Source of the DNA: Candidatus Omnitrophota bacterium
Lineage (GTDB): Bacteria; Omnitrophota; Gorgyraeia; Zapsychrales; Fredricksoniimonadaceae
Assembly (NCBI GenBank): GCA_037131245.1
Contig: JBAXRK010000007.1
Location: forward strand, 7,226 to 71,225
Direction of reading: 5' to 3'
Length of the DNA: 64,000 nt
The stretch's first letter is position 1. Each line of letters starts with the position of its first letter. A program made the position numbers and the translations under genes. Positions 1 to 26,558 of the stretch are shown here, piece after piece. The notes under the pieces are model-generated. The model was not told where the DNA came from. It did not search any database and was given only the letters and a program-made list of their open reading frames with translations.

Positions 1-581
1 TGACATTGACCATTTTGTCAAAGTTTCCCGACCCTGACGTTCTGGCCGGTGTTGAACCGGCGCAGAATGTTATCTTGGCCTCAACACTTAATACCGAGCA
101 TGTTCGGGTCCGCTATGAACGCGGGACCCCTTCGTCTGCCCAACGCCTGAAAGCTCTCGCGACGCTTAAAAAGCAGGGGTGGAAGGTGGCGGTCCGGGTC
201 GATCCCGTGATATTCTATCCCGGTTGGGCGGCTGAGTATGGCCGGCTTTTTAAACAGGCGCGCGCCTTGGGCCCGGAGGCGGTGGTTTTTGGTGTCCTAC
301 GGCACACGCCTGATATCTTCCGACGGTCGTCTACGGCTTTGCGCCGTAAGCTGGAGGAAGATGGTTTGTCCGACATGGGAAGCGGAGAAGAGCGCGTTGC
401 CGAAGTTCACTCTTTGATGCGCCGGTCGCTGGGGACAGCGCTCATGCGGCGTTCTTTACCAATATCATTTAGGGCTGTTCGTCAACCTCTGCCGCTTTTA
501 TGGACCCGCGGGATCGCGGCTAATCCTTTGACGGCGGGTTTGGAGAAGCAGCTTCAGCAAATGGGAATATATGAGCGTTAA
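1..581 (+). CDS. Radical-SAM enzyme, SplB/COG1533-like, C-terminal part only (5' end lies upstream of the window)
   Basis: The frame is open to the window edge. Segment VRVDPVIFYPGWAAEYGRLFKQA resembles the C-terminal half of spore-photoproduct-lyase-type radical-SAM proteins (recalled from memory, not searched). The stop overlaps the next start by 11 nt. Confidence 0.4.
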   Translation, partial: TLTILSKFPDPDVLAGVEPAQNVILASTLNTEHVRVRYERGTPSSAQRLKALATLKKQGWKVAVRVDPVIFYPGWAAEYGRLFKQARALGPEAVVFGVLRHTPDIFRRSSTALRRKLEEDGLSDMGSGEERVAEVHSLMRRSLGTALMRRSLPISFRAVRQPLPLLWTRGIAANPLTAGLEKQLQQMGIYER

Positions 582-1746
582 GGCATCCAACGTTTATTTA
601 AAAAGTTTTTCATGTAATACGGGAAGTGTTTTTCTCGCCCGGCTAGAGCAGCGCTTAAACGCCTTTAAGGGTTTGACGCTTAGCGTCCCGTCGCGTACTT
701 TTTTTGGCAATGACCTGCCTGATCATTTTGCTGACATCCAGGCGGCGGCGCAATGCCGGGTGTGTATCATTGACGGTTGCGCGGTGATGGAATATATCCA
801 TCGGGACGTTCTTGATTATATTGCTCGCTTAAGGGATATGGCGCCGGAAGTGGTCCTGGTCCTGACCGGTTGCGCGGCCAGTTACGCCGTTAAACGGCAG
901 GCTGTTCCCGATGGCATTGCCTGCGCGTCTGATAATATTGATGATATTTGCGCGTTTATTGGTACGCAACTTGGTTTAAGCGCCAGCCCCTCTGTCGATC
1001 GGGCGGCGGTCGATGAACTGATCGCCGACCCGCGCAGTGGCGGTGTCCTGGTACGCTGGGGGTGCAACAATCAGTGCGCGTATTGCGTCGTTCCCAAAGT
1101 CAGGGAAGCCGGCCGGCGGCAGATGGATGTGCCGGCGGAGCGTATTGTTGAAGCCCTTAAGGGGATGTCCTCTCAGGGCATTGATCCGGCGATGCTCAGC
1201 GGCGTGTGTATCAGTTCCTGGCGCGGCCAGATCAAGGGACGCAAAGGAACCTTTGATGATCTGCTGGATCTGATCTTGAAAGAAACACCGGTGCGCATTG
1301 CCCGGCTTTCTTTGCAGCCGAAAGATATCACGCCCAGGACGCTGGAGCTGATCCAAAGTGAGCGGATCCTGCGCCCCTGGATGATCGCGGTCCAGCATTT
1401 TTCCGACCGGATTTTAAAAGCGATGCGCCGGCAGTACGATTCTTACAAGGTGGGGGAGATCTTTGATTTCTTCAAGGCGTCGGGATTGCAGGGGGGCGTG
1501 ATCACCGATCTTATTGTTGGTTTTCCGGGTGAGACGGCCGAAGACCTGGAGTCCCTGGATGTTTTTTTGCGGCGTTATGCGAAGGTTTTGGCCCGGGTGA
1601 AAGTGAGTGCTTACAGCGACCGTGGCCTTACCCTGTCTTCTAAAATGACAGGCCAGATCTCCGAGGAAGAGAAGAAAGAGCGCTCCCGTCTGGTGGCCGG
1701 TTTTTGCGCCAGGCACGGCGTGCCTTGCGAGGAGCTGACGCTATGA
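571..1746 (+). CDS. Radical-SAM methylthiotransferase-like enzyme (MiaB/RimO family architecture, no TRAM domain)
   Basis: CNNQCAYC (aa 165-172, nt 1063-1086) is a CxxxCxxC motif. The N-terminal domain has MTTase-like Cys contexts (FSCNTG, CRVCIIDGC, LTGCAAS). The downstream LIVGFPGETAEDLE block is typical of MiaB/RimO. At 391 aa the protein ends without room for a TRAM domain. Confidence 0.6.
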   Translation: MSVKASNVYLKSFSCNTGSVFLARLEQRLNAFKGLTLSVPSRTFFGNDLPDHFADIQAAAQCRVCIIDGCAVMEYIHRDVLDYIARLRDMAPEVVLVLTGCAASYAVKRQAVPDGIACASDNIDDICAFIGTQLGLSASPSVDRAAVDELIADPRSGGVLVRWGCNNQCAYCVVPKVREAGRRQMDVPAERIVEALKGMSSQGIDPAMLSGVCISSWRGQIKGRKGTFDDLLDLILKETPVRIARLSLQPKDITPRTLELIQSERILRPWMIAVQHFSDRILKAMRRQYDSYKVGEIFDFFKASGLQGGVITDLIVGFPGETAEDLESLDVFLRRYAKVLARVKVSAYSDRGLTLSSKMTGQISEEEKKERSRLVAGFCARHGVPCEELTL

Positions 1747-2678
1747 GGTACCGTGTTCATTACGAGTTCAACCGCGCGTGTGGCCAGGCCTGCGCGTATT
1801 GTTATAACCGTTTTGATCGTCGTCCCGCCGCTGACAGCAAGATGGATGCCCGCCTGGAAGAATATATCATGAAACTTCCCGGTGTAGAAGGTGTTGATGT
1901 TTACCTGACCGGGGGCGAACCTTTGCTCGAGTGGCCGCGTTTGAAAAATTTGTTGCTGCGGTTGAAGGGGTTGCGGAATAAGCAGAACCGCCTGTTCCTT
2001 TTTTCAAGCTTGCGGGGGGCTGGAACACCATTTTTCAGGTTCACGCGCGAGCAGGATGTGGTTCTGTTGATCAATGCTGATAGCGCCGACTTGGAACAGG
2101 CCTGCCGAAGGGGCTTACGGGATATTCCATCTTCTCGCCGTATCCTGACCCATGTCCTTGGCCGCGGCCGGGGGTCTTTGGTCGATCGCTTTAAGGCCTG
2201 GCGACGGTTGGGTTTTCGCGATGTGCGGATCAAATTGCCGTATGCGCCGGACGGGCTGGACCGTTTGCTTAATAAGCCGGAGCAGGCGCGTCTTTTTTCG
2301 CTGATCGATGAAGCCCAAGCGGCCTGCCTGAGCCGGATCAGCCGGGGGGCTCTGACCGCCGAGAGTTCGGCATTATTATCGCTATTCGCGCAGGACATAG
2401 TGTTATTGTCTAAAGGCTCGGTGCCCTGTCCGCCCTGCCGCGCCGGGATCAATTATTTTATGGCCGGGGACGGGAATGTTTTCCCTTGTTTGAAGCTTTC
2501 GACGCCGAAAGTGGTGGCCAAAGGGGGAAGAGGCCATCCCTGCGCGACGGGGAAGCTGGAAAAGAAGTTAAAGGTGCGTTTACGGTCCGGAGCGAAACAA
2601 TTATTATCCGCGATCGACAAGGCGGGCCTTTCTCTTGGGATCATTGAGAAGATCGCAGCAGCATCACCATTTTGTTGA
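1743..2678 (+). CDS. Radical-SAM enzyme with C-terminal Cys-rich twitch/SPASM-like region
   Basis: The internal ATG at 1743 forms an ATGA overlap with the upstream stop, so I prefer it to the track start at 1704. The radical-SAM motif is CGQACAYC, followed by YLTGGEPLL. The C-terminal CPPCRAGINYFMAGDGNVFPC resembles an auxiliary-cluster region. Confidence 0.65.
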   Translation: MRYRVHYEFNRACGQACAYCYNRFDRRPAADSKMDARLEEYIMKLPGVEGVDVYLTGGEPLLEWPRLKNLLLRLKGLRNKQNRLFLFSSLRGAGTPFFRFTREQDVVLLINADSADLEQACRRGLRDIPSSRRILTHVLGRGRGSLVDRFKAWRRLGFRDVRIKLPYAPDGLDRLLNKPEQARLFSLIDEAQAACLSRISRGALTAESSALLSLFAQDIVLLSKGSVPCPPCRAGINYFMAGDGNVFPCLKLSTPKVVAKGGRGHPCATGKLEKKLKVRLRSGAKQLLSAIDKAGLSLGIIEKIAAASPFC

Positions 2679-2697
2679 CGGTTTTGGGAGCGAAAAC

Positions 2698-3411
2698 ATG
2701 AGCAAGACAACGGTCATTGTCACGGGTGGATCAAGGGGCCTGGGCCTGGAATTGGTCCGGGTTTTGTTGCGTGAGGGGTATCAGGTCGCGACGTGTTCGC
2801 GGACTTTGTCTCCGGAGCTCCAGGCCCTGCGCGCGCGGCATTCCGGCTTGCTATGGCAAAAGGTTGATGTGTCGGATGAGAAGCAGGTTAGGGTTCTTTA
2901 CGCGCGGGTTAAAGCCCGTTTTAAGAACATTGACGTTCTGATTAACAATGCCGCGATCCCCGGCCCTCTTGGCTTCTTTAAGGACGTTGCTTTGAAGGAT
3001 TGGGAGCAGGCTTTGCGTGTGAACCTGTTGGGAGCGGTCTATCATACCCATGCGGCTTTGCCTTTAATGGGCAAGAAGCCGGGTGGGCTTATTTTGAATG
3101 TTTCGGCGCCTGTCGCTGGTGATTTGGTCGGTTGCAGTGCTTACGCGGTCGCTAAAACAGCCTTGAATTATTTTTCCGATATTCTTGCGGCAGAATTGAA
3201 GAAAAGCCCTATTGAGGTCAGGACGGTGTTTCCGGGCACGATGGACACCGGGTTTGTTAAAGCCGCGCTGCGAGGCGCGGGAAAGAAGATCCCTTTTTCG
3301 GTGGAGCTGGCACGTCAGAAGCGGCTTGGGGCTTTGCCGGGAGCTGAAGCGGCGGCGGAGAAGATCGTCAGGATGATCGTCGAATGGAGCGCGCGCCATG
3401 GCCGGAAATAA
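2698..3411 (+). CDS. Short-chain dehydrogenase/reductase (SDR)
   Basis: The start is ATG 2698 after GGGAG. TGGSRGLG is a Rossmann motif, NNAA follows, and the Y-x3-K context is SAYAVAKTAL. Length is about 237 aa. Confidence 0.8.
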   Translation: MSKTTVIVTGGSRGLGLELVRVLLREGYQVATCSRTLSPELQALRARHSGLLWQKVDVSDEKQVRVLYARVKARFKNIDVLINNAAIPGPLGFFKDVALKDWEQALRVNLLGAVYHTHAALPLMGKKPGGLILNVSAPVAGDLVGCSAYAVAKTALNYFSDILAAELKKSPIEVRTVFPGTMDTGFVKAALRGAGKKIPFSVELARQKRLGALPGAEAAAEKIVRMIVEWSARHGRK

Positions 3412-4348
3412 AGAAGTGAAGCCGGTCAGAAGAATGCTGCTGGGGTTGACCGACCGCTGCAATATGCGCTGTTCTTATTGTTATGTGCCCTTAGGCCGGC
3501 GCGATATGACCCGGGCCGAGGTGCGTCGGCATTTGACCTGGTTCATTGACGCGCCTGGTGACCGGGAGAAACTGGTTTACCTTTACGGCGGCGAACCGTT
3601 CCTGGTCCCGGAGCTGATGGTTGATGCGGTTGGCTATGGGCAAAAGATCGCGGTCAAACGGGGGAAGAAACTATCTTTCATCGTTGTGACCAATGGAACG
3701 CTGGCCAGCCGGCTGGAGCTGTCGTTCTTTCTTGAGCATCAGATGAAGGTCATGGTCTCGTTCTCCGGTCGCGGCCGGGCCCATGATCGGGTAAGGCCGC
3801 TTCGCGGAGGTAAGGGAACATATGCCACGGCTCTTGCCACCTTGGAGAAATTTGTTGCCTTATTGCCGAATGATCGTCTTTGGTTAAGCGCGACGGTCAC
3901 GCCATCGGGCGTGCGAACGCTGGACGCTGATCTGCGTTATTTTGAAAAGCTGGGTGTAAAGAATTTTCATGTGGAACCGGTCATTCATCCGGACTATCTC
4001 TGGGATAAGCAGGCGGCTGTTTTGAAAGGAGCGGTGGAAGATTTTTTGAGCCGTTTAACGGCGCAGGCCGCGTCAAAAGACAAGAGTCTTTTTAATACGC
4101 TTTTGTGCCGGCAGCTGGAGATGCTTGAGGGGTTGTATCTGCCGCAGGACTATGTGCGTTACAATGATACTCGCTTTTATCCCGGCCGCCGGAGAATGTA
4201 TGATCATTTTGAATTGGATCAGGGGCAACGGCCCGTTTATCCGGTGTGGGACATACTTCGGCAGGTGACCCTGTCGGCGGCGACCGATATTGTTAGACGG
4301 ACAAGGTGCGCGCAATACGTGGAACGCGCTTTGGAAAGGGCCATTTAG
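3398..4348 (+). CDS. Radical-SAM enzyme (no obvious SPASM extension)
   Basis: The motif is CNMRCSYC, followed by YLYGGEPFL. The gene overlaps the SDR stop by 14 nt. Confidence 0.7.
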   Translation: MAGNKEVKPVRRMLLGLTDRCNMRCSYCYVPLGRRDMTRAEVRRHLTWFIDAPGDREKLVYLYGGEPFLVPELMVDAVGYGQKIAVKRGKKLSFIVVTNGTLASRLELSFFLEHQMKVMVSFSGRGRAHDRVRPLRGGKGTYATALATLEKFVALLPNDRLWLSATVTPSGVRTLDADLRYFEKLGVKNFHVEPVIHPDYLWDKQAAVLKGAVEDFLSRLTAQAASKDKSLFNTLLCRQLEMLEGLYLPQDYVRYNDTRFYPGRRRMYDHFELDQGQRPVYPVWDILRQVTLSAATDIVRRTRCAQYVERALERAI

Positions 4349-4359
4349 GGGAGGCGCTC

Positions 4360-5163
4360 ATGGCGGCAAAAAAGAAAGTGATCTTAAATTGGAGCGGGGG
4401 GAAAGATTGTACGCATGCTTTGCATGTCCTTCAGCAGTCGGGTCGGTATGATGTGGTCGGGCTTCTTGAAATAGCGGGCACTCACCGGAATTTACAGCAC
4501 GGGATCCCGCACGCTTTGATCCAGGCGCAGGCGGATAGCCTTGGCTTGCCGTTATTTCGGCATATTGTTACCTGGGACACCAAATCCCTGGCCTTGACCA
4601 GGAACGCTTATCGGGACCTGGTGATCCGGGACCCCGGATTTCACGCGAAACTGCAGGCTTTCAAGAAACTAGGCGTTGCATATCTGGCCGGTGGGGACAT
4701 TGATCCCGACAGTTTTCAGCTCAGGGTGAAGGTCCTGGCGCAATTCGACTCGCTTAAGGCTTTGTGCCCTCTGATCTGCCCGGGCCTGGACCATCGTCTT
4801 TCTGGTGAGGAACGCCGGCAGAGGATGCGGGCTCATTCTTTGGAGCTTGCCCACCGGTTCATCAAAGCCGGTTTTAAGGCTTTGGTCGTTAAAGTTAACC
4901 TTAATACGGAGCGAGGCGACCAAGGCCGGGCGGCCTCTCTGAAGCTTCTTGGCCGCGATTACAACGGGGCTTTTTTGTCTTCCCTGGACAGTTCCATGGA
5001 TCCCTGCGGCGAGTTTTATGAATTCCACACTTTTGTTTACGATGGGCCGGGCTTCCGGAAGAAAGTGGATTTTACGAAAGGCCCGGTGCGTTATGTCAGT
5101 GAGATGGATTACGGGATGCAAGCTATGCTGGATCTAAGCCCGAAGGGCCTGCCGAAAGGATAA
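4360..5163 (+). CDS. PP-loop ATP pyrophosphatase, Dph6/MJ0570 (DUF71)-like
   Basis: The start is ATG 4360 after GGGGAGG. The N-terminal LNWSGGKDC is a PP-loop (SGGKD) and the C-terminal motif is GEFYEFHTFVYDGP. The family assignment is from memory. Confidence 0.6.
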   Translation: MAAKKKVILNWSGGKDCTHALHVLQQSGRYDVVGLLEIAGTHRNLQHGIPHALIQAQADSLGLPLFRHIVTWDTKSLALTRNAYRDLVIRDPGFHAKLQAFKKLGVAYLAGGDIDPDSFQLRVKVLAQFDSLKALCPLICPGLDHRLSGEERRQRMRAHSLELAHRFIKAGFKALVVKVNLNTERGDQGRAASLKLLGRDYNGAFLSSLDSSMDPCGEFYEFHTFVYDGPGFRKKVDFTKGPVRYVSEMDYGMQAMLDLSPKGLPKG

Positions 5164-5171
5164 AGGAGTAT

Positions 5172-5200
5172 TTGTTTTCCTTTTTGACATAGTATATACT
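5172..5200 (+). promoter_or_regulatory. Sigma70-like promoter candidate TTGTTT-N17-TATACT in the only sizeable gap of the rSAM block
   Basis: The hexamers were read directly (5172-5177 and 5195-5200). They lie in the 103-nt AT-rich gap upstream of the Cys-rich gene. A TTGACA at 5184 lacks a well-spaced -10. Confidence 0.35.
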
Positions 5201-5266
5201 TTCATTAAAGAGGTTAAAGAAGCTATTTTCTTAAGACCAATCTTTACTCCGTGAGGGACAAGGCTT

Positions 5267-6385
5267 ATGCGATTTCTTTTCTGCCTGATCGTGCTCTTGT
5301 TTGCTGGTGCCGCTTCCGTTAATGCGGCCGAATCCGCCGCTTGTCCGGTGGGGAGTTCCTGTTCGGATAATTTACCGACCGCGATCGCGGCGGCTTTCAG
5401 CTCGATCAACTGGGATACCTTTACGATCCCTTCTCCGACCTGCCTGGCGGATTGTAGTTGTACGCCAGTCACTGATACGATGCAGTTGGTATGCCTGAGG
5501 GTTAGGGATATGAGGGTTGATGCGATCTATAATTCGATTGCTACCTCGATCGCTGCTGACCCGACGATCTATGGGACAGTTGCCGCCACCGCGAGCAGTA
5601 ACATAACGGCGGCTTTCTCCGGTTTGACTACTCAGGATCAGGCGAAGGCTGCAACGTTGACGCCTAATTTGGTGACCTGGTGGAATTTTAAGATGTGCCG
5701 CAATCAATCGGTTTGTTATGTCTCTGGGGCGCCGGTCGCGGATGGAACCAAACTTCCGGCATCGGTCAATACCCTTGCGGCGTGCAATAATTATAACGGT
5801 ACCGGTTTGTGTGTTAATGCGATGGTTAAACCGAGTTTGACCGCTTCCTGCACCGGGACGCCGACTTTGCTCAATACCAAAGCGAGTCCTGCTAAGGATG
5901 CATGCGTTATTTTAAGCTCCTCAGCTTTTGATCTGACAGCCTTCAATGACTACTATACACTGACCTGCCCGGCGGATAATACGTGCCAGAATGTTCCTCC
6001 GACCGATCCGAGCTATGCCACCAAATTTATTTCGCAGGATACAGTAGCCGGTCTGTTGGCTTTGGCGGAAGGCAATCGCTATGGTGCCGCTAAATATTGC
6101 GAGGATTATGTCCGCGATTATGTGCATGCTCAGGTGCCGGCCGATATATGGACCCCAGCCCGGTATCAATTGATATGGAATTGTAAAATAGCTTTCGGCC
6201 CAGCGGGAACGCGGGATCAGTTGAAAGCGGATATCACCAAATGGGAAGAGAAGGTGTGTGATATGACCTGCGATTCGACGACGGCTCATCCTTATACGAT
6301 CGTTGATACGAGTGTGAAGGATTTTTGTACGGGGACACCGGATACGTATCCCTGGCCTTTGCTGATCGATTACAGTTTGCTGTGA
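5267..6385 (+). CDS. Secreted cysteine-rich protein, unknown function
   Basis: The Sec-type signal peptide is MRFLFCLIVLLFAGAASVNA/AE. The mature part has about 19 Cys (hand count). It is rich in Thr/Ala/Asn/Pro and I recognise no domain. Confidence 0.6.
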   Translation: MRFLFCLIVLLFAGAASVNAAESAACPVGSSCSDNLPTAIAAAFSSINWDTFTIPSPTCLADCSCTPVTDTMQLVCLRVRDMRVDAIYNSIATSIAADPTIYGTVAATASSNITAAFSGLTTQDQAKAATLTPNLVTWWNFKMCRNQSVCYVSGAPVADGTKLPASVNTLAACNNYNGTGLCVNAMVKPSLTASCTGTPTLLNTKASPAKDACVILSSSAFDLTAFNDYYTLTCPADNTCQNVPPTDPSYATKFISQDTVAGLLALAEGNRYGAAKYCEDYVRDYVHAQVPADIWTPARYQLIWNCKIAFGPAGTRDQLKADITKWEEKVCDMTCDSTTAHPYTIVDTSVKDFCTGTPDTYPWPLLIDYSLL

Positions 6386-6401
6386 GGATAGGTGGCGTTT
6401 C

Positions 6402-6704
6402 ATGGTGATCTCGTTACAGAAAGAAGTTTATCCTCCTGAAGCGGTGCTTCAGGCGTGTTATCAGTTCCTTGAGAAAGCGTATTTCTTTATTGATCTTGAC
6501 GCGTCGGGGCAGGTGATCAGGGTCCATATTTCCCGGAAAACCGGGCCGCTTAACAAGGCGTTCAAAAATGTTTTTCTGGAAGAGTTGCTGCATTCTTCGC
6601 TGCGGTTCCAGCTGGCCCGTCGTAATCGCAAACTGCGAGAGTTCATCGTTGGCAGTGCTTTGTTTTCCCGTGATGCCGCGGCCGGAAAGAAACATGTCAA
6701 ATAA
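6402..6704 (+). CDS. hxsD: HxsD-like small protein (His-Xaa-Ser system accessory protein), copy 1
   Basis: It is 100 aa. KEVYPPEAVLQACYQF lies near the N-terminus. ELLHSSLRF sits where the TIGR03976 family carries its LLNDYxLRE signature (from memory). It is immediately upstream of the paired rSAM maturases. Confidence 0.5.
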   Translation: MVISLQKEVYPPEAVLQACYQFLEKAYFFIDLDASGQVIRVHISRKTGPLNKAFKNVFLEELLHSSLRFQLARRNRKLREFIVGSALFSRDAAAGKKHVK

Positions 6705-6921
6705 TAAGCCGGGAACCTGGCGTTTGCTATTTGATAAAAGGGTCTACCCGCTGCGCGCGGTGAAGGCGGCGGCTGATGACTTTTCGCATTTGGGGCGCTT
6801 TGCTGTCCGTCCGGTTCAAGGAATGATCGAAGTGAGCGCTCAGGTGCCAGCGGACGCTTCGCCATCATTGCGTGCGGAGTTCGCGAATTACGCGCTGGGG
6901 GCCGTATGCCAGGGCCGTTGA
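6694..6921 (+). CDS. HxsD-like small protein, copy 2 (divergent paralogue)
   Basis: ATG 6694 overlaps the upstream stop by 11 nt. KRVYPLRAVKAAADDF parallels KEVYPPEAVLQACYQF of copy 1. The C-terminal EFANYALG resembles the DYxL part of the family signature. Confidence 0.45.
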   Translation: MSNNKPGTWRLLFDKRVYPLRAVKAAADDFSHLGRFAVRPVQGMIEVSAQVPADASPSLRAEFANYALGAVCQGR

Positions 6922-8360
6922 AAGGGTTGGAACCCTACGCTTATTTTCGTTTCAGGAAGTTGGGGCGCTCGGTATTGCTGACCAATGAAACGGGTGAGTT
7001 CCAGCATGTGACCCCGGCCCAGTTTGCCGCCATGTCCGCCGGTAAGCTTAAAGCCCTGTTCCCGGACACGTACCAGGCGCTGCGGGACAAGAATTTTGTC
7101 AGGTCTGTTCTTTCAAAGCAAAAAGTAGCCGAACGTTACGCCGGAAAATATTTTGTCGGCGAGGGGTCCAGCCTGCATATTGTGGTCTTAACGCTGCGCT
7201 GCGACCAGGCCTGTGTGTATTGCCATGCCAGCGCGCAGTGCGGCGGTGGCCATGGGCTTGATATGCCGCTTGAGCTGGGCCGCCGGGTGGTTGAGAAGAT
7301 CTTTGAGTCACCATCGCCGACGCTCAGCATTGAGTTCCAGGGCGGCGAGCCGTTGTTGAATTTTGGGGTCCTCAAGGATATTGTCCTGCGGGCCAGTCGT
7401 AAAGCCGCCAGCGGCCAAAGGCCGGTTTCTTTTTCGGTGGTTTCCAATCTGGCGCCGTTGACGGATGAGATGTATCGGTTCTTTCTCAAGCATCATGTTC
7501 AGGTCTGTACATCTCTTGACGGGCCGAAGTGGCTTCATGACCTTCAGCGGCCGCGGGCTGACGGGCGCTCGTCGCACGGGATCGTGACGCGCGGTTTAAA
7601 ACGGCTCGCGACTCGCAAGGATGGGCGTAATGCGTCGTCTCTGCTGACGGTCACCCGCCGCAGTTTGCCCTACTACCGGGAGATCGTTGACGAGTATGTG
7701 AAGCAGGGCATGACGGTCATTCATTTGCGGCCGCTCAATCCTTTGGGCGCGGCGAAGAAAAAGACCGGGTCGATCGGGTATTCAGCGGAAGCATTTGTTA
7801 AGTTCTACCGGCAGGCTCTGGATCATATTTTGTCGCTCAATCGTCAGGGGCGTTTTTTATCTGAGCGCACGGCAGTGATCTATCTGACCAAGATCCTGAC
7901 CAGCACGGACCCGCGATACCTGGACTTGCGGTCGCCCTGCGGGGCGGGGATCGGGCAGGTCGTGTACAATCATGATGGTGATGTGTACACATGTGATGAG
8001 GGGCGGATGCTAGGCACGGCGGGCGATCCGGCGTTTCGGATAGGGCCGCTCGCGTCGTTCTCCTTTAAAACGCTGGGCGATAGCCCGGTGGTCAAGGCGT
8101 GTTGTACCGCGTCGTGCCTTGAGGTCGTGCCGGGTTGTTCCGAGTGCGCGTACAAGCCTTATTGCGGTGTGTGCCCGGTGCTTAACCACGCGATCGGCGG
8201 AAATGTGTTCCGGTCAGCGTCTTTTGTTTGCGAGATAAAAAAAGGGATCCTCGATCATTTGTTCGCAAGGCTCGAGGACCCGCGGGACAGGAAAATATTT
8301 TATCGATGGATCAATGCGCCAAGCGAGGAGGCCAAAGATGGCAAGCAAGAAAAAGGTTAA
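6906..8360 (+). CDS. hxsB: Radical-SAM/SPASM maturase, HxsB-like
   Basis: It is 484 aa. The N-terminal YAYFRFRKLGRSVLLTNETGEFQHVTPAQF precedes the core. The motif is CDQACVYC, followed by FQGGEPLL. C-terminal Cys clusters are CGAGIGQ...YTCDEG and CSECAYKPYCGVCP (SPASM-like). Assignment to HxsB rather than HxsC rests on length and memory only. Confidence 0.55.
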   Translation: MPGPLKGLEPYAYFRFRKLGRSVLLTNETGEFQHVTPAQFAAMSAGKLKALFPDTYQALRDKNFVRSVLSKQKVAERYAGKYFVGEGSSLHIVVLTLRCDQACVYCHASAQCGGGHGLDMPLELGRRVVEKIFESPSPTLSIEFQGGEPLLNFGVLKDIVLRASRKAASGQRPVSFSVVSNLAPLTDEMYRFFLKHHVQVCTSLDGPKWLHDLQRPRADGRSSHGIVTRGLKRLATRKDGRNASSLLTVTRRSLPYYREIVDEYVKQGMTVIHLRPLNPLGAAKKKTGSIGYSAEAFVKFYRQALDHILSLNRQGRFLSERTAVIYLTKILTSTDPRYLDLRSPCGAGIGQVVYNHDGDVYTCDEGRMLGTAGDPAFRIGPLASFSFKTLGDSPVVKACCTASCLEVVPGCSECAYKPYCGVCPVLNHAIGGNVFRSASFVCEIKKGILDHLFARLEDPRDRKIFYRWINAPSEEAKDGKQEKG

Positions 8361-8649
8361 AAAAGCGGGCGTGATCCCAAGGATATCTAAAGGGGTCAAG
8401 GATTTCATGATGGATGAGGAAGGCAAGATCAAAAAGAAGGACATCGCCAAGCTGGGTGTGTCGATGGCCGCGCTGGGCATGATGGTGCATTCGGACGCGG
8501 CGGCCGACGTGACCTGCCCCTATATCACCTCGGATTCGCATTCCAATGCCCTGGTCCTGCCGGTAGCACCCAAGACCTGCTATGAGCACGCGAACACGCA
8601 TACGAATCATTGTAATCATTCGAGCCATAGTGTGGGTGGTTGGTGCTAA
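8338..8649 (+). CDS. hxsA: HxsA-like precursor peptide/protein with C-terminal His-x-Asn/Ser repeat and 4 Cys
   Basis: ATG 8338 lies 5 nt after GAGGAGG, inside the 3' end of the upstream maturase gene. The 103-aa product ends ...CYEHANTHTNHCNHSSHSVGGWC. The stop overlaps the start of the next rSAM gene. Alternative internal starts at 8407/8410 would give a classical Sec signal peptide. Confidence 0.6.
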   Translation: MASKKKVKKAGVIPRISKGVKDFMMDEEGKIKKKDIAKLGVSMAALGMMVHSDAAADVTCPYITSDSHSNALVLPVAPKTCYEHANTHTNHCNHSSHSVGGWC

Positions 8650-9761
8650 AAGCCGCTCAGAAAGAGCTGCAGATCTTTTTGACCGATCGCTGTCAGTTGT
8701 CTTGCCGGTACTGCTATCTTGACCGCCGTGCAAAAAAAGACCTGTCCTGGCCCCTGGTCAAGAAAGCAGTCACGGATTTTTTGGATGGGGCGTCAGCCCC
8801 CCGGGTTGTTTCATTCTATGGCGGCGAACCGCTGCTTTCGTTCCCTCTTTTCAAACGCACTGTTGAGTTCATCCGTCGCGATCATTCGCCGGCGGATGTT
8901 TTTCTTTATCTGGCGACGAACGGGATCCGGGTTGACCGGAAGGTTGCGGCTTTCTGCGCGGCGCAGGCGGTCACGGTTTTGCTGAGTTTCGACGGCCGCC
9001 GTGACCGGCATGATGGCCAGCGTTGCGGTGCTGTGGAGAGCAGTTACGATGCCGCCCGGTCGGCGCTCAAGCATTTGCAAAAAGCGCGTGTTCCGGTGAT
9101 CGCGAATATGGTGATCCGGCCGCAGGATGCCTCGTCCTGGGTAGATGATCTTAAGCATGTGGTCGGTTGTGGTTTCACGCAGGTCCAGTTGCTCCCGGAT
9201 GCGGCGGCCATCTGGTCAACGGTTGAGATCAACCGTTTCGCCCGGTCGCAGCGGGATTTTGTTAGGATGAACATCGATCATTTCACCCGGAAAGGGGCGA
9301 GTGTTTTTACGGTCGAGCAGGTGCGCCGTTTGATCTCATTACGCGATAACCGGGGGGCATGCGGTTGCAATAAACGCATCTTGTCTGCCGATGGAAAATA
9401 TTATGCCTGTGATAAGGCGCTGGCTTGTTCTTCTGATGGCCGTCAGCCGTATGCGACCGGAGATGCCCTGGCAGGGTTTGACGCGGATGGCCGCCGGAAG
9501 ATCATCGGCCGGCTTGATCGCCGGGTAAAAGCCGCAGAACGCGGCAGGCGTTGTGCGGCTTGCCGCTGGCGTGAGGTATGTTTTTGTCCTTTGGGCCTTC
9601 CCGTGTTGAGCGGGGTAGATCCGGACCTTGGTCAGCGCTGGAATTCTTTTTGCCGCATCTCGGACCTGCTGCTGACCTCCTGCCGGCAGATCGTCCTGAA
9701 ATTAAAGGATGAGCCGCGCTTTTGCCGGGCGTACCAACTTAGGCCGGACGCGCCGGCCTGA
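8640..9761 (+). CDS. hxsC: Radical-SAM/SPASM maturase, HxsC-like
   Basis: It is 373 aa. The motif is CQLSCRYC, followed by FYGGEPLL. C-terminal clusters are CGCNKRILSADGKYYACD and CAACRWREVCFCPLG (SPASM-like). It is paired with the upstream maturase across the precursor gene. The start codon (TTG 8640 or GTG 8643) is uncertain. Confidence 0.55.
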   Translation: MVLKAAQKELQIFLTDRCQLSCRYCYLDRRAKKDLSWPLVKKAVTDFLDGASAPRVVSFYGGEPLLSFPLFKRTVEFIRRDHSPADVFLYLATNGIRVDRKVAAFCAAQAVTVLLSFDGRRDRHDGQRCGAVESSYDAARSALKHLQKARVPVIANMVIRPQDASSWVDDLKHVVGCGFTQVQLLPDAAAIWSTVEINRFARSQRDFVRMNIDHFTRKGASVFTVEQVRRLISLRDNRGACGCNKRILSADGKYYACDKALACSSDGRQPYATGDALAGFDADGRRKIIGRLDRRVKAAERGRRCAACRWREVCFCPLGLPVLSGVDPDLGQRWNSFCRISDLLLTSCRQIVLKLKDEPRFCRAYQLRPDAPA

Positions 9762-9776
9762 ATGTTTTGAGGGACA

Positions 9777-10514
9777 ATGGCTATTACCGGAAAACTATTA
9801 GTGATCGATCTCGACGGCCGTTGTAACTGCCGTTGTGTTTTTTGCCTTAAAGAGGACGCTATCCTGACCGCGCCGCGCCGTACCTTGGCCGGGACGCTGA
9901 CGCAGATCCGCCAGGGCATTACCGCCGGCATCGACAGTGTGGATTTTTTCGGTGGTGAACCGACCATGTATCCTTTCCTCAAGAAAGCAGTTGTCTTCAC
10001 GCAGCGGAAGGGATTAAAGGCTTTTCTGGCTACGAACGCGATCGCCTTTTCTTCAAAGGCCTACACGACAGCATTTTTTAAAGGTCTCAAGCCTTTAGCC
10101 GTACGGACCACGCTGCATAGCCATCACGCTGACGTGCATGAGCGGATCACCCGGACGCCCGGCAGTTGGGCCCGGACCATCAAGGGGATAGGCCATTTGC
10201 TGGCGGCCAATGAGCAGGTCACGGTGAACATTGTGATCAATCGCTGGAATTATCGCGAGCTGGTCGCGTGGACCCGGTTCCTGTACGGGCTCGGGGTGCG
10301 TTCCGTGAAATATTCGGCCCTGCAGCACACCGGCGGTGCTTTGGCTTGCGAGGAATTGTGGGTGGGAGATAAACAATACGCGGCCCCGTTACTGAAGGCG
10401 TTGCGCGCAGCATCGAAATTAGGCTTTTATTTTATTGAACTCGAAATGATCCCCGGGCCTGTCGTAGACAAAGCCCGGGGAATGAAGATCAATTGCCACA
10501 GCCGAAGACCCTGA
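9777..10514 (+). CDS. Small radical-SAM enzyme (core domain only)
   Basis: The motif is CNCRCVFC (CxxxCxxC), followed by FFGGEPTM. It is 245 aa with no auxiliary Cys cluster. It is the last gene of the + strand block. Confidence 0.65.
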   Translation: MAITGKLLVIDLDGRCNCRCVFCLKEDAILTAPRRTLAGTLTQIRQGITAGIDSVDFFGGEPTMYPFLKKAVVFTQRKGLKAFLATNAIAFSSKAYTTAFFKGLKPLAVRTTLHSHHADVHERITRTPGSWARTIKGIGHLLAANEQVTVNIVINRWNYRELVAWTRFLYGLGVRSVKYSALQHTGGALACEELWVGDKQYAAPLLKALRAASKLGFYFIELEMIPGPVVDKARGMKINCHSRRP

Positions 10515-12093
10515 AATAGAGGTCCTTGTAGTTACAGGCAAACTTCGCAGGCATCGGGATCTTGTCGGTCATTGGCAGGATCTTGTAGCAGTAAGCGATC
10601 TGCCCTTTGCGGTCCGTTATTTTGTGTTCGTCATCCATGCAATCATAGAACGGTTTGTCGAGTTGCCTGATCGGCGGAACATTGTCTGAGGTGGCTTGGT
10701 AACAGATGGTCCCGTCCTTGGAAAAACATATCCCGATATAGCCGCACACATCAGTGGTCGGATTGGGCGGGCAGATCGCCGGGTCTTCCTGTGAATCGCA
10801 AAGTTTATCACCTTGCACGACAGTCCAGGTAGAGGTCCAGTTCTTGTTGGTAGTATCCGGCCACCAACCGTACCAGCACGCATTCTGTGTGCAGCTTTCA
10901 TTTTCATGCAGCCCGTTAGCGCCCTCAACGTTGGGTGAATACCCTCCGGGACAGGTCCGTTCGCAATAACGATCGGGTGAGCATTGCCCGGTGGCCCCGT
11001 AATTTTTCAAATAGACGTAGTGATTACGATAGGCGTTAATTTTTTCTTGAATGCCTGTTTCGACATATTTGGTCAGGACCCGGTATGGATTGTGATTCGC
11101 TTGCATTGCTATGACCCGGTGCGCCTGAAGCAGGTCCATGTTCGCCGGAGTGGGCGGGAGGGTTGCCATATTCGGCGGATTATCACCCGCATTGGCCGCG
11201 CTCTGGCGGTAAATAACTTCTTTCACCAATTGCCAGCGCTGCGGTATGGAAAGACTATCGTCGTTCTCCAGGCTCATGGCATTTTCGTTAACGTTATGGG
11301 TATCGTCTTCCAAGGTCGTTGAATTAGAGATAATGGTACAAGGCTTTGAGTGCGGGTAAGGATATTGCCAGCAGGAAGGCAGGCAGTTCTGTTCGGTTTC
11401 ACCGCCGAAGCCGTCATGCTTACAGCCGTAAATGGTGTCGGGTGTTGACGGGTGAAGGGCATTGGCGCATTGTTTCGAGTAAATCCGTTCCCCGATCGCG
11501 CAGTCTTTGGTGTCATAAGTCCCCAGGCCGGCTTGAGTCTGGGTGCATGTTCCGATCGGATTAGCGAACTCGCCATTAAAGCGCGCGTCGACCGCGGACC
11601 GGACAGGGTTGCATAGGTTTGCGGCCGAGGGCGCGATCCCGGTGGCCGCCAGGATCTTGGTGCCGCAGCCGACCGGTTTAGCTTCGGTGCAACAGGTTTC
11701 ATCAGGGATCCAGGCTTCTTCCTGGGCGCATTTCAACGGGGTGCATGTGCGGTAATAGTAGCGCATGGTCGGCTTGTTCTTATCCGCGCCGCAATCGCCT
11801 TTGGTCCAGGTATTGATGATCGCCTTCTTCCAGTCGTTATAGTGGGTGGTTTGGTCGGGAAGCGTGACCGGATTGGCCGAACATTTGCAGCTTTTGGGTG
11901 TCAGGGACGGGTCGAGCGTGCTATCTTGTTCGATCTTTTCAGAGGTGGCATCCTTGACGCTTTCTTCGGTCAGCTTGAAATAACCCTGAACCCCTTTGAG
12001 GAGCATGGGGCCGCCGATCGCAATACCGGCCAGGATGATCGTGGCAAGCAGGATATATTCAAGAGCGGATTGGCCTTTTTTCATCAAGCGCAT
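10489..12093 (-). CDS. Flp/class-III-signal prepilin-like N-terminus fused to a ~500-aa cysteine-rich extracellular domain
   Basis: The preferred start is ATG 12093, with GAGG 5 nt upstream. The N-terminus is MRLMKKG/QSALEYILLATIILAGIAIGG, which fits the G/XXXXEY prepilin signature plus a hydrophobic helix. The rest has about 30 Cys by hand count. The 3' end overlaps the convergent rSAM gene by 26 nt. Confidence 0.6.
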   Translation of the reverse strand: MRLMKKGQSALEYILLATIILAGIAIGGPMLLKGVQGYFKLTEESVKDATSEKIEQDSTLDPSLTPKSCKCSANPVTLPDQTTHYNDWKKAIINTWTKGDCGADKNKPTMRYYYRTCTPLKCAQEEAWIPDETCCTEAKPVGCGTKILAATGIAPSAANLCNPVRSAVDARFNGEFANPIGTCTQTQAGLGTYDTKDCAIGERIYSKQCANALHPSTPDTIYGCKHDGFGGETEQNCLPSCWQYPYPHSKPCTIISNSTTLEDDTHNVNENAMSLENDDSLSIPQRWQLVKEVIYRQSAANAGDNPPNMATLPPTPANMDLLQAHRVIAMQANHNPYRVLTKYVETGIQEKINAYRNHYVYLKNYGATGQCSPDRYCERTCPGGYSPNVEGANGLHENESCTQNACWYGWWPDTTNKNWTSTWTVVQGDKLCDSQEDPAICPPNPTTDVCGYIGICFSKDGTICYQATSDNVPPIRQLDKPFYDCMDDEHKITDRKGQIAYCYKILPMTDKIPMPAKFACNYKDLYFRVFGCGN

Positions 12094-12129
12094 AAGGACC
12101 TCTAAGGGGTTTATCAAATGGTCGCTTTA

Positions 12130-12298: not shown

Positions 12299-13555
12299 AT
12301 GGGAAAAAATTTAAAGACTATTGTTCTGGCGGCAGGCAAGGGCACGCGCTTCAAGTCTGCTACGCCGAAGGTTTTGCATTGCCTTGCCGGTAAGCCCGCC
12401 TTGCATTATGTGCTGGATGTGGCGGAAGCGGTTGGTTCTTTGACAACGTATGTGGTGGTTGGCCATCAGGCCGAGCTGGTCGCGCAAGCGGTAGGCGGTC
12501 GGGCGGCGATCGTTGAACAGCGGCAGCAGTTGGGCACCGGTCATGCGGTCAAAATGTGCGCGCCTCATTTTAAGAGCGCTGACGGCACGGTCCTGGTGAT
12601 GTGCGGTGATACGCCGCTGCTTGATAAAGCTATTGTGCGCCGTCTGGCGCAGAAACATGAAAAGACCGGCGCGGCGGTCACGGTATTGACCTGCCTCTTG
12701 GCCGAGCCTTCGGGGTATGGCCGTATCATTCGTGACGCGCGGGGCAGGTTTGCGGCGATCCGCGAGCATAAGGACGCTTCGGCCCAAGAGCTTGCGATCC
12801 GTGAGATCAATACGGGCGTTTACTGTTTCAAGGCTAAAGAACTGTTCGGCGCGATCGGTGAGATCCGGCCGAACTCCAAGAAGAAGGAATATTATCTTAC
12901 CGATATTATTGAGTTGTTCCTGGGGCGCGGCCTGGGTGTTGAAACCCTGGTCACGGATGACTGGACCGCCAATCTTGGGCTTAATACCCGTGCCGACCTG
13001 GCTTTATCCGAGGCGATCCTTCGGAAAAAGATCCTGGGCCGGTTGATGCTTGGCGGGGTTACGGTTGTTGATCCTGCGACCACGTACGTAGAAAATGATG
13101 TTGTGATCGGGCAGGATACTGTTATTTATCCTTGCACTTATATTCATCATGACGTCCGGGTCGGACGCGGTTGTTCCCTCGGCCCTTTTGCCCGGTTACG
13201 TCCGGGTACCAGGTTGGGGAATGGCGTTTCAGTGGGGAATTTTACGGAAGTTTCCCGCTCGGTCCTGGGTGATGATGTGAACATGAAGCATTTTAGTTTT
13301 CTGGGGGACACGTCGGTCGGGCGCGGCGCGAATATCGGCTGCGGGACGGTCACCGCGAATTACGATGGAAAAACCAAGAACAAGACTTCGATCGGTCCCG
13401 GCGCGTTCATCGGCTGTGACACGGTCCTGGTCGCTCCGGTCAAGATCGGTAAAGGGTCCAAGGTCGGTGCCGGCAGCGTGGTAACGGCGGGGCGTGATGT
13501 TCCCGCTGGTAAACTGGCGGTCGGGATGCCGGCCAGGGTCATTAAAAAGGTATAG
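12299..13555 (+). CDS. glmU: Bifunctional UDP-N-acetylglucosamine pyrophosphorylase / glucosamine-1-phosphate N-acetyltransferase
   Basis: The N-terminal LAAGKGTRF nucleotidyltransferase motif is present. The C-terminus has left-handed beta-helix hexapeptide repeats. Confidence 0.85.
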   Translation: MGKNLKTIVLAAGKGTRFKSATPKVLHCLAGKPALHYVLDVAEAVGSLTTYVVVGHQAELVAQAVGGRAAIVEQRQQLGTGHAVKMCAPHFKSADGTVLVMCGDTPLLDKAIVRRLAQKHEKTGAAVTVLTCLLAEPSGYGRIIRDARGRFAAIREHKDASAQELAIREINTGVYCFKAKELFGAIGEIRPNSKKKEYYLTDIIELFLGRGLGVETLVTDDWTANLGLNTRADLALSEAILRKKILGRLMLGGVTVVDPATTYVENDVVIGQDTVIYPCTYIHHDVRVGRGCSLGPFARLRPGTRLGNGVSVGNFTEVSRSVLGDDVNMKHFSFLGDTSVGRGANIGCGTVTANYDGKTKNKTSIGPGAFIGCDTVLVAPVKIGKGSKVGAGSVVTAGRDVPAGKLAVGMPARVIKKV

Positions 13556-13559
13556 GATT

Positions 13560-14510
13560 ATGAGCGAGATCTGCGTCCTTTCGGGCAATGCGAATAAAGA
13601 GCTGGCAGAGAAAATCTGCAAGTGCCTGGATATTCCTCTGGCGGAAGTGGTTTGTACCCGTTTTAGTGAGGGAGAGATCCGTGTTCAGATCGTTGAGAAT
13701 GTGCGCGGCAAGGACCTGTTCATTATCCAGCCGACCTGCACGCCGACGAACGATAATTTGATGGAGTTATTGATCCTGATCGATGCTGCCAAGCGCGCGT
13801 CGGCCAAGCGCATTACGGCTGTTATCCCGTTCTATGGATACGCGCGCCAGGACCGCAAGGATCAGCCGCGGGTTCCGATCACAGCTAAGCTGGTGGCGAA
13901 TCTGATCACGGCAGCTGGTGTTGACCGGGTTCTGGCGATGGATCTTCATGCCAGCCAGATCCAGGGGTTCTTTGATATCCCGGTAGATCATCTGTACGCT
14001 ATTAATACGCTGTGCGAATATTTTGAAGCGATGAACATGAAGAACCTGGTGGTCGTTTCTCCCGATGTCGGCGGCATTCGCATGGCGCGCGCGTATGCCA
14101 AACGCCTGGGGGCGGGATTGGCCATCATCGACAAGCGCCGCATGAGCCCTGAAGAGACCGAAGTGATGAATATTCTTGGTAAGGTTAAGGGCAAAACCGC
14201 GGTGCTGGTGGACGATATCGTGGCGACGGGTGGATCGCTCACTGAGGCTATTACGGCGCTTAGTGAGGTTGGCGTCGAGAAAGTTTATGCCGCGGTCAGC
14301 CATGGCGTCCTTTCGGGGCCGGCGGTGGAGCGGATGGCGGAGTGCAAGGCGCTTGAAGAGCTGGTGGTGACGGATAGTATCCCGCTCAGCGCGAAGGCAA
14401 AAAAAGTTTCCAAGATCAAGCAGCTGACGGTCGCGCCGCTTTTGGCGGAAGCGATCAAGCGAATTCATAACGAACAGTCGATCAGCTGCCTGTTCGAAGT
14501 TAATCGGTAG
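13560..14510 (+). CDS. prs: Ribose-phosphate pyrophosphokinase
   Basis: The internal ATG 13560 gives MSEICVLSGNANKELAEKI. Also present are YARQDRK, DLHA.QIQGFF and the PRPP-binding loop VLVDDIVATGGS. Confidence 0.9.
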   Translation: MSEICVLSGNANKELAEKICKCLDIPLAEVVCTRFSEGEIRVQIVENVRGKDLFIIQPTCTPTNDNLMELLILIDAAKRASAKRITAVIPFYGYARQDRKDQPRVPITAKLVANLITAAGVDRVLAMDLHASQIQGFFDIPVDHLYAINTLCEYFEAMNMKNLVVVSPDVGGIRMARAYAKRLGAGLAIIDKRRMSPEETEVMNILGKVKGKTAVLVDDIVATGGSLTEAITALSEVGVEKVYAAVSHGVLSGPAVERMAECKALEELVVTDSIPLSAKAKKVSKIKQLTVAPLLAEAIKRIHNEQSISCLFEVNR

Positions 14511-25923: not shown

Positions 25924-26115
25924 ATGGGTAAGGTTAAGCCGGAAAATGAATGGAAGTTCAAGTGTGCTAATACCGGAAAAGCGATCAAGCGCAAGAAGCG
26001 TTATTATCGTAACGGGAAATATTACGTGACCAAGCAGGCCTGGGCGGCTCAAATGAAGAAGGAAGCCGAAGACAAGGCCAAGAAAGCCGCGGAAGCCGCA
26101 CCGGCCGCAGCGTAA
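25924..26115 (+). CDS. Small lysine-rich protein, unknown function
   Basis: It is 63 aa with its own promoter, an RBS (AAAGGGG) and a terminator hairpin. The C-terminal half is Lys/Ala-rich. Confidence 0.5.
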   Translation: MGKVKPENEWKFKCANTGKAIKRKKRYYRNGKYYVTKQAWAAQMKKEAEDKAKKAAEAAPAAA

Positions 26116-26136
26116 ACGTTAGAGCTTGTTTTTCTG

Positions 26137-26175
26137 ATCCCGGTATTGTTGAAAAACATTACCGGGATAATTTTT
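26137..26175 (+). terminator. Rho-independent terminator candidate (ATCCCGGTA...TACCGGGAT + T5)
   Basis: A 9-bp outer stem has further inner pairing. It is followed by AATTTTT. Confidence 0.5.
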
Positions 26176-26203: not shown

Positions 26204-26240
26204 TTAGCGGGGTTGTTAGGTTGGTAACCGAAAGGACAAG

Positions 26241-26534: not shown

Positions 26535-26558
26535 TAAGACATTTGTGTTAATAAAAAA

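Follow-up and report, generated by a model that had tools for sequence, protein, structure and literature searches.

A probable Omnitrophota variant of the Hxs peptide-maturation system, enlarged by additional radical-SAM genes

What would a bacterium build with seven radical S-adenosylmethionine (rSAM) genes packed into 10.5 kb, and do all of them serve one substrate? We address this question for a stretch of 64,000 nucleotides (the window) from a Candidatus Omnitrophota bacterium (GenBank assembly GCA_037131245.1, contig JBAXRK010000007.1, positions 7,226 to 71,225), in which 13 open reading frames (ORFs), all on the + strand, lie between nucleotides 1 and 10514. A preliminary description, made from the sequence alone, had taken this region for a His-Xaa-Ser (Hxs)-type rSAM maturation locus with extra enzymes, and profile searches agree, with HxsB above the TIGR03978 cut-off. 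Our reading, to which we give a probability of roughly 70%, is that the locus is a chromosomal, Omnitrophota-lineage variant of the HxsA3/A4-type Hxs maturation system that has been enlarged by lineage-specific tailoring genes.

The core of the locus can be followed gene by gene. HxsB matches TIGR03978 over residues 12-469 of 484 and carries a C-terminal SPASM Cys pattern (GDVYTC ... CSECAYKPYCGVC); its nearest solved structure is CteB (PDB 5wgg). The two small proteins encoded before it fit the earlier proposal of a duplicated HxsD: HxsD_rel (6694..6921) lies above the cut-off of its own model, and the protein at 6402..6704 is HxsD-like, with FLEELLHSSLR in the motif region where the family has LLNDYxLRE. 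A single-sequence AlphaFold2 model of the latter reached a predicted local distance difference test score (pLDDT) of 54, too poor for a fold search. The preliminary description had placed three genes in the Hxs families. Of these, 6906..8360 belongs there as HxsB (476.4 bits against 370), 6402..6704 falls just short (49.3 bits against 50), and 8640..9761 gave no HxsC match among the best 25 families listed.

The gene that follows HxsB encodes the candidate substrate, which had been described as a His-Xaa-Ser-type repeat precursor. That assignment holds, below the family cut-off: the peptide spans HxsA3 model positions 2-80 of 81 (E 1.6e-9) and scores 37.4 bits against a cut-off of 65. It consists of a Lys-rich conserved leader with the motif KDFxxDEEGKIxKKDIAKLG, a Sec-like hydrophobic stretch that includes an AxA-like site, and a core that contains five H-x-[S/N] triplets and four Cys and ends in GGWC. 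Five triplets in a 51-residue core compare with 1.1 expected (P = 0.0006).

Homologs of this peptide share the leader far more than the core. In an alignment of 11 of them (A1), the leader reads K.IKDFxxDEEGKIxKKDIAKLG(V/I)SLAVLGMM and is followed by QPExAxA, and the core is variable, with H-x-[S/N] repeats (family median of 6 triplets per core) and a frequent GGWC or HGQW ending. A profile built from three members recovered 247 representatives at E <= 1e-3 from 1.84 billion proteins. Family cores are composed of 15% His, 18% Ser, 7% Asn and 2% Lys plus Arg. The peptides of the related loci described below score 42-54 bits on HxsA3, and only that of L020 passes HxsA4 (60.7 against 55). Judged by its sequence, the window precursor is thus homologous to the curated HxsA3 and HxsA4 families and stands outside them.

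To place the locus among its relatives, we compared it with ten related loci (L002, L014, L015/16 and L017-L022) whose HxsB proteins are 44-68% identical to that of the window; those with an organism name are Omnitrophota. HxsD, HxsB and a peptide of about 100 residues occur in all ten (peptide 39-69% identity, HxsD-like protein 39-71%). HxsD_rel, located by tblastn, and HxsC-like rSAMs (25-62% identity) are each present in nine, L022 being the exception for both. L002 and L014, which are the closest two, share their chromosomal flanks with the window, namely an Rrf2 regulator, an Fe-S protein, hcp, PilZ and a response regulator upstream. In these two loci, a block comprising an rSAM of a family here termed rSAM0, an A24-type peptidase and a pyrophosphatase lies downstream of the core; in the window it lies upstream. 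The recurrent accessories are the rSAM0 family, the A24-like peptidase, a PP-loop enzyme (PF01902 or AsnB-like), U32-family proteins and further rSAMs, and Hxs loci with many rSAMs are a common sight across the clade. HxsB itself has homologs in 4311 clusters at E <= 1e-50; the named hosts among the best 120 of these are uncultivated Omnitrophota, Schekmanbacteria and Patescibacteria. This spread is at odds with a published figure, derived from HxsA in NCBI genomes, that puts 99.7% of HXS systems in Pseudomonadota (PMC13128918).

The product of 8640..9761 had previously been named HxsC. We rejected this assignment, since no HxsC match appears among the best 25 families listed; the protein is instead a PapB/CteB-like SPASM rSAM. 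Its best family matches are PapB, the CXXX-repeat maturase and CcpM, its SPASM motif reads GKYYAC...CAACRWREVCFC, and CteB (PDB 5wgg) is again the nearest solved structure. In the six loci with Cys-containing cores (the window, L002, L014, L015, L019 and L022), the gene directly after that of the peptide always encodes a SPASM rSAM with the signature GxYYxC...CxxCx5CFC; none of the four with Cys-free cores (L017, L018, L020 and L021) has this enzyme, and a SPASM-less rSAM is found there instead. Fisher's exact test assigns this 6/0 versus 0/4 distribution a probability of 1 in 210, taken at face value for ten loci that are phylogenetically non-independent. Because the SPASM rSAM co-varies with Cys-containing cores, the window enzyme probably targets the core peptide's Cys residues. 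In L022, the SPASM rSAM gene after the precursor (12520..13670) is split over two reading frames, through a frameshift or an assembly error.

From its sequence, 9777..10514 is the only HxsC-like gene, far below the cut-off. Its product has just two Cys beyond the rSAM motif and no auxiliary-cluster domain, and its gene is not adjacent to that of HxsB.

The arrangement of the genes argues for a single long transcription unit. The intergene gaps within nucleotides 1 to 10514 are, in order, -11, -4, 19, -14, 11, 103, 16, -11, -16, -23, -10 and 15 nt, so that the 13 ORFs, their coordinates and the seven stop/start overlaps reported earlier agree with the ORF list. All six CxxxCxxC motifs read exactly as first given (Table 1), and Cys positions support the extra C-terminal clusters reported for three rSAM genes, 6906..8360 (HxsB), 8640..9761 and 1743..2678. 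The suspicion that the locus continues upstream is borne out by a public contig (L001) that equals the window sequence over 11,746 nt with 0 mismatches and reaches 7,264 nt upstream of window nucleotide 1. There the operon gains 3.9 kb with + strand genes for PilZ, a receiver-only response regulator, an eighth rSAM (rSAM0), the A24-type peptidase and a 274-residue protein, separated by gaps of <=22 nt. The edge fragment at 1..581, taken for an SplB-type enzyme and counted as the seventh rSAM in the window, matches SPL profiles, and the full-length protein on L001 (6928..7845) has 305 residues with CFGFCDYC. In total, the unit covers about 14.4 kb and 18 + strand genes from PilZ to the HxsC-like gene, eight of them for rSAMs, with all gaps <=22 nt bar one of 103 nt. 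Scans for terminator-like and promoter-like consensus sites gave counts not above shuffled controls.

Table 1. Features of the Hxs-type locus and of related loci. Positions refer to the window unless a contig or locus (L) is named.
Feature	Position	Strand	CxxxCxxC motif	Basis
rSAM0, eighth rSAM, PapB-like	upstream of window, on L001	+	CNLDCGYC	NCBIfam PapB best match
A24-type aspartic peptidase-like membrane protein	L001 5190..6098	+		PF01478 26.1 bits (cut-off 26.5)
274-residue protein	upstream of window, on L001	+		no family match
SPL-like rSAM, C-terminal 192 residues	1..581	+		PF20903 27.2 bits; TIGR04070 E 3.7e-11
Methylthiotransferase-family (MiaB/MtaB/RimO-like) rSAM without TRAM	571..1746	+	CNNQCAYC	TIGR00089 173 bits (cut-off 251)
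Small rSAM	1743..2678	+	CGQACAYC	weak PF13353 and PF04055 matches
Short-chain dehydrogenase/reductase (SDR)	2698..3411	+		PF00106 142.9 bits
rSAM, PapB-like N-terminal two-thirds, no SPASM	3398..4348	+	CNMRCSYC	NF047865 116 bits, residues 13-222
Dph6/PF01902-type PP-loop ATP pyrophosphatase (NWSGGKD)	4360..5163	+		PF01902 54.3 bits
Secreted Cys-rich protein	5267..6385	+		Sec signal; 20 Cys, 19 in mature part
HxsD-like small protein	6402..6704	+		TIGR03976 49.3 bits (cut-off 50); PF27806:HxsD on record
HxsD_rel, second HxsD-like protein	6694..6921	+		NF038315 47.7 bits (cut-off 41; passes)
HxsB, rSAM/SPASM maturase	6906..8360	+	CDQACVYC	TIGR03978 476.4 bits (cut-off 370)
103-residue precursor, HxsA3/A4-like	8338..8649	+		NF038309 HxsA3 E 1.6e-9, 37.4 bits
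PapB/CteB-like rSAM/SPASM enzyme	8640..9761	+	CQLSCRYC	NF047865 (PapB) 114 bits
HxsC-like rSAM protein, 245 residues	9777..10514	+	CNCRCVFC	HxsC4 71 bits (cut-off 500); HxsC 67 (267.9)
542-residue protein, 30 Cys, class III signal KKG/QSALEYILL	10489..12117	-		motif scan; convergent on operon end
TTYYPSP(F/Y)G-family gene	L017 8814..9395
TTYYPSP(F/Y)G-family gene	L018 4338..4880
TTYYPSP(F/Y)G-family gene	L019 8906..9388
TTYYPSP(F/Y)G-family gene	L020 8761..9351
TTYYPSP(F/Y)G-family gene	L021 8723..9364
TTYYPSP(F/Y)G-family gene	L022 8549..9383
~240-residue protein gene	L015 7508..8209
~240-residue protein gene	L019 11448..12170
~240-residue protein gene	L020 11467..12207
~240-residue protein gene	L021 11470..12222
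~240-residue protein gene	L022 11446..12210

The left half of the locus poses the second part of the question. Six genes, for the 274-residue protein, the SPL-like enzyme, the methylthiotransferase (MTTase)-like enzyme, the small rSAM, the SDR and the rSAM at 3398..4348, lie between the A24-type peptidase and the ATP pyrophosphatase. The SDR and the Dph6-like pyrophosphatase named in the preliminary description are recovered by PF00106 and PF01902, as is its MiaB/RimO-like enzyme by TIGR00089, the last below cut-off (Table 1). The MTTase-like protein scores 22.6 against a cut-off of 27 on PF00919. Its triads C15/C70/C101 (auxiliary) and C165/C169/C172 (rSAM) are invariant relative to MtaB and MiaB; it carries a 19-residue insertion in the N-terminal domain and stops where the TRAM domain would begin. 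One close relative is 63% identical, on a 3.9-kb contig that keeps the order 296-residue protein, SPL, MiaB-like, 293-residue protein; the remaining relatives are housekeeping MTTases of about 30% identity, the next closest at about 31%. A metagenome scan with the MiaB-like protein returned housekeeping MTTases alone, at 25-28% identity and with no neighbors in common. The small rSAM has twitch-like C-terminal Cys (GNVFPC / GRGHPC). The rSAM at 3398..4348 is a paralog of rSAM0 (30% identity) with just 2 Cys beyond its motif.

The A24 and pyrophosphatase genes are directly adjacent in L002 and L014, and the six-gene block therefore looks inserted. The preliminary description had raised the co-location of the two halves in related genomes as a check, and the outcome goes partly against it. 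Counterparts of the genes in 1..3411 are absent from the ten loci; the pyrophosphatase and paralogs of 3398..4348 do recur. The left half is thus a real, conserved cassette whose association with Hxs is documented in this genome only, and because four of its genes are absent from related loci, the link of these four to the Hxs peptide is one of gene order alone.

These findings invite a reading in which the locus holds two unrelated modules, the cassette being an independent pathway for small-molecule, nucleoside or lipid modification that landed in the Hxs locus and does not touch the peptide. MTTases (MiaB/MtaB) and SPL-family enzymes (SplB) classically act on nucleic acids, which would suit such a pathway, as would the insertion-like appearance of the block, the distribution of the SPL-like, MiaB-like, small rSAM and SDR genes (0/10 related Hxs loci) and the existence of the 296-residue, SPL, MiaB-like and 293-residue sub-block, in the same order, on another contig. 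That contig is just 3.9 kb long, however, so an Hxs core could lie beyond its ends. The cassette is also on the same strand as the core, with junction gaps of 11-12 nt or overlaps and no terminator-like sites above shuffled counts. Loss of the RNA-binding TRAM domain from the MTTase-like enzyme speaks against tRNA as its substrate. The clade's other Hxs loci likewise carry large and variable sets of rSAM and tailoring genes, those of L022 including MTTase-like ones (30% identity across 88% of the query). We consider a separate pathway doubtful and retain the enlarged Hxs system as our reading.

The accessory genes raise a different possibility for the substrate. The Cys-rich protein at 5267..6385 agrees with its earlier account as a secreted 19-Cys protein (20 Cys in total, 19 after the signal peptide). 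It gave no Pfam or NCBIfam match, and a single-sequence AlphaFold2 model of its 372 residues was unusable (pLDDT 35). Its gene immediately precedes that of HxsD in each of the three closest loci, and the protein is 31-32% identical to its L002 and L014 counterparts. At the other end, the protein at 10489..12117 carries a class III signal of type IV pilin/Flp-like type; profile searches gave it no family match, and L002 (49%) and L014 (47%) keep a counterpart at the 3' end of their loci. The earlier statement that no protease or exporter is visible needs revision, because a candidate A24-type peptidase (motifs GGGDAKLF and LEDARSHRISN; PF01478 just below its cut-off) is encoded upstream and the precursor has its own Sec-like segment and AxA site. 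An A24-like gene occurs in six loci. A Cys-rich class III-signal protein (G/xxxxE) accompanies it in the window and, upstream of HxsD, in L017 and L018; L002 and L014 have a homolog of 10489..12117 whose N-terminus lies outside the fetched DNA, and in L015 neither a class III-signal protein nor a homolog was found. The protein at 10489..12117 is likely the substrate of the A24 peptidase, and a class III-signal protein is a more canonical A24 substrate than the Hxs peptide. As the primary reading, we rejected A24 as leader peptidase of the Hxs peptide (conserved K-L-G/V-S-L-A): the site lacks a basic residue at -2 and Glu at +5, and canonical class III signal proteins are present in 3/6 A24 loci.

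On this evidence, the main substrates could be the two Cys-rich secreted proteins, with the locus acting as a protein cross-linking or surface-structure system tied to type IV filaments and c-di-GMP, and the Hxs peptide as one client among them. Both proteins keep fixed positions in the three closest loci, distant loci encode other Cys-rich secreted proteins (a TTYYPSPYG family upstream of HxsD and a protein of about 240 residues after HxsB), an A24 peptidase and class III signals are present, E and F genes of type II secretion or type IV pilus systems adjoin the locus in L015 and L020, and PilZ and the response regulator head the operon in three genomes. The Cys-rich proteins nevertheless have ordinary export signals and no homology across the wider locus set; the H-x-[S/N] peptide alone is kept with HxsB and HxsD everywhere, and its leader is far more conserved. 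The E. coli Hxs enzymes, moreover, act on HxsA (PMC13128918). We therefore regard a system built around the Cys-rich proteins as improbable, and keep the Hxs peptide as the substrate in the interpretation favored here.

Several observations on these accessories stand apart from that argument. PilZ and a receiver-only response regulator head the operon in three genomes (L001, L002 and L014; L001 region 3379..6098), which may point to regulation of the locus by c-di-GMP or by a two-component system. In distant loci, a small secreted family lies directly upstream of HxsD, with an N-terminal (I/V)T(x)TTYYPSP(F/Y)G motif and a Cys-rich C-terminal end, often CC; its L017 and L018 members have class III signals, and the L019 member, the only one tried, gave no NCBIfam match. 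Five loci encode a signal-peptide protein of about 240 residues between HxsB and the precursor gene that is absent from the window, L002 and L014. It is Cys-rich in L015, L019 and L020, the three translated, and the L019 member lacks a family match. A relationship of 5267..6385 to either the ~240-residue or the TTYYPSPYG proteins was rejected for want of BLAST-level similarity. The window's ATP pyrophosphatase gave no match in a PDB sequence search, and its counterparts adjoining A24 in L002 and L014 are 25-27% identical. At its head, the L002 locus has a 576-residue fusion of an HxsC-like rSAM domain to a PP-loop domain (SGGVDS; 6512..8242). PP-loop/AsnB-like enzymes recur in L002, L014, L017 and L022, suggesting carboxylate activation as a common tailoring step. 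Still longer runs of rSAM genes mark the Omnitrophota loci L020 (12493..21470) and L021 (12551..21455): the 21.5-kb HxsB stretch of L020 has nine, of which seven, one B12-binding, follow the peptide, and L021 has more than six, including an 849-residue rSAM and an rSAM-glycosyltransferase fusion. Further into the window, G+C content falls to 0.465-0.49 at 26001..32000, against about 0.54 elsewhere; this segment contains the ORF 27003..30476, whose 1157-residue product has no Pfam match.

Taken together, these results suggest the following route, drawn partly from the E. coli analogy. The Lys-rich leader of about 35 residues would serve as the recognition element of a precursor that continues with a Sec-type segment with an AxA-like site and a core of about 50 residues. 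In the cytoplasm, HxsB, the two HxsD-type adaptors and the HxsC-like rSAM would modify the H-x-S/N repeats, by analogy with E. coli, and the SPASM enzyme at 8640..9761 would modify the core Cys, probably forming thioether-type cross-links. The peptide would then be exported through Sec and its leader removed. rSAM0, the A24-type peptidase and the PP-loop pyrophosphatase belong to the recurrent accessories of such loci, A24 most plausibly processing the adjacent Cys-rich class III-signal protein. The six-gene cassette may add further modifications, for example methylthiolation, or may serve another substrate.

What the product does can be approached through the E. coli system. The preliminary description had stated that Hxs has no assigned product or function, which no longer holds: in E. 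coli, HxsD-HxsB-HxsC-HxsA was shown to be an anti-phage system that blocks phage DNA entry and requires all four genes (Li et al., Nat Commun 2026; PMC13128918). E. coli HxsA is a 214-residue protein with a signal peptide, a domain that binds peptidoglycan, and five basic HxS repeats; it is N-terminally processed and exported as the periplasmic effector, carries a +8 Da modification on an SHRSS repeat, and has been proposed to bind DNA electrostatically (PMC13128918). HxsC binds HxsD in that system (PMC13128918). By analogy, the window peptide might form an envelope-located barrier against phage. This is the weakest step of the proposal, because the core is short, acidic or neutral rather than basic, and without a peptidoglycan-binding domain, and a metal-binding or surface-interaction role would be equally possible.

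A number of findings weigh against our reading as a whole. The precursor matches neither TIGR03979 (HxsA) nor any Pfam domain, and its HxsA3 score is about half the cut-off. No gene scores above the HxsC or the HxsA cut-off, and the second Fe-S domain, important in E. coli HxsC, is missing from the HxsC-like protein. The ten loci behind the Cys correlation are not phylogenetically independent, and none of the ten related Hxs loci holds the SPL-like, MiaB-like, small rSAM or SDR gene. With regard to function, the window peptide has no peptidoglycan-binding domain and its core holds 1 K/R against 4 D/E; since family cores contain about 2% Lys plus Arg, the electrostatic DNA-binding model for E. 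coli HxsA does not transfer. The flanks consist of housekeeping genes (glmU, prs, L25, pth, dnaB and bamA) or of PilZ and response-regulator genes, with no defense island, and PADLOC (2023, no Hxs models) returned generic pVip-type rSAM matches and nothing specific.

The same observations can be turned toward a product of another kind, in which identical enzymology yields an exported metal-binding peptide rich in His, Cys, Ser and Asn, metallophore-like or metal-buffering. Cores with 15% His, frequent Cys, GGWC at the C-terminus and hardly any Lys or Arg would suit metal binding, as would the missing peptidoglycan-binding domain, the nonspecific PADLOC result, and surroundings that form no defense island and include an Rrf2 regulator, an Fe-S protein and hcp adjoining the locus in three genomes. 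However, the operon contains no transporter, TonB-type receptor or metal regulator, and phage defense is the sole experimental function for any Hxs system. The L019 locus (1232..8339), furthermore, adjoins a Toprim protein, a large serine recombinase and a HEPN/nucleotidyltransferase pair, surroundings that look like a mobile or defense-island context, unlike those of the window. We consider a metal-binding product unlikely. Returning to the variant Hxs system, a bolder reading, which we hold to be less likely than not, is that the clade's Hxs loci (Omnitrophota where the genome is named) produce peptides of a new class, exported, heavily modified and rich in His, Ser and Asn. Maturation might combine the Hxs modification (+8 Da in E. 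coli), Cys cross-linking by the dedicated SPASM rSAM and, in this genome, methylthiolation by the TRAM-less MiaB-like enzyme and the chemistry of the SPL-like and two other rSAMs. The product might work with Cys-rich pilin-like surface proteins in envelope defense or host contact, and not as a DNA-binding barrier.

The locus bears on a chemistry that is unsolved even in E. coli, where the modification is known just as +8 Da on one SHRSS repeat of a 214-residue protein. The clade's substrates are short, have cores of about 50 residues and share a strongly conserved leader; this should ease analysis, and the clade's loci form a natural series with 4 to >10 rSAMs that is open to enzyme-by-enzyme dissection. 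The covariation of Cys cores with the SPASM rSAM defines a directly testable enzyme-substrate pair. A TRAM-less methylthiotransferase in a peptide operon would, if true, be a new use of its family, and HxsB extends far beyond the Pseudomonadota-centered distribution in PMC13128918.

How far, then, does the locus resemble known systems? The enzyme at 571..1746 keeps both Cys triads and the two-domain layout of MiaB, MtaB and RimO; it differs from them in lacking TRAM, in its 19-residue insertion and in its place in a peptide-maturation operon. Ranthipeptide/SCIFF-type thioether maturases are resembled by 8640..9761, 3398..4348 and rSAM0, all of which match PapB (NF047865) best. Their scores of 93-116 bits nonetheless compare with a 340-bit cut-off, and the substrate has no SCIFF or ranthipeptide-type Cys-rich C-terminus.

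Compared with E. coli HXS, the window likewise has a bona fide HxsB, an HxsD-type protein, a second, HxsC-like rSAM and, beside the enzymes, a substrate with His-Xaa-Ser-type repeats and an export signal at its N-terminus. The genes, however, run D, D_rel, B, A, SPASM-rSAM, C-like and not D-B-C-A, and the host belongs to Omnitrophota. The substrate has 103 residues, no peptidoglycan-binding domain, non-basic H-x-S/N repeats and four Cys, and the HxsC-like protein is below the HxsC cut-off and without the auxiliary cluster domain. The locus also has a duplicated HxsD, six more rSAMs, an SDR, an ATP pyrophosphatase, A24 and two Cys-rich secreted proteins.

The description of the system as undescribed also needs correction, as NCBIfam holds variant Hxs models defined by hidden Markov models: HxsA3 (NF038309), HxsA4 (NF038313), HxsC4 (NF038332) and HxsD_rel (NF038315). 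Literature searches found no paper describing these families. The window peptide (37 bits) and the HxsC-like protein (71 against 500) fall far under the cut-offs, and the models do not imply the Cys core, the dedicated PapB-like SPASM rSAM or the six-gene cassette. The window peptide nevertheless aligns end to end with HxsA3, HxsD_rel passes, and the best match of 9777..10514 is HxsC4.

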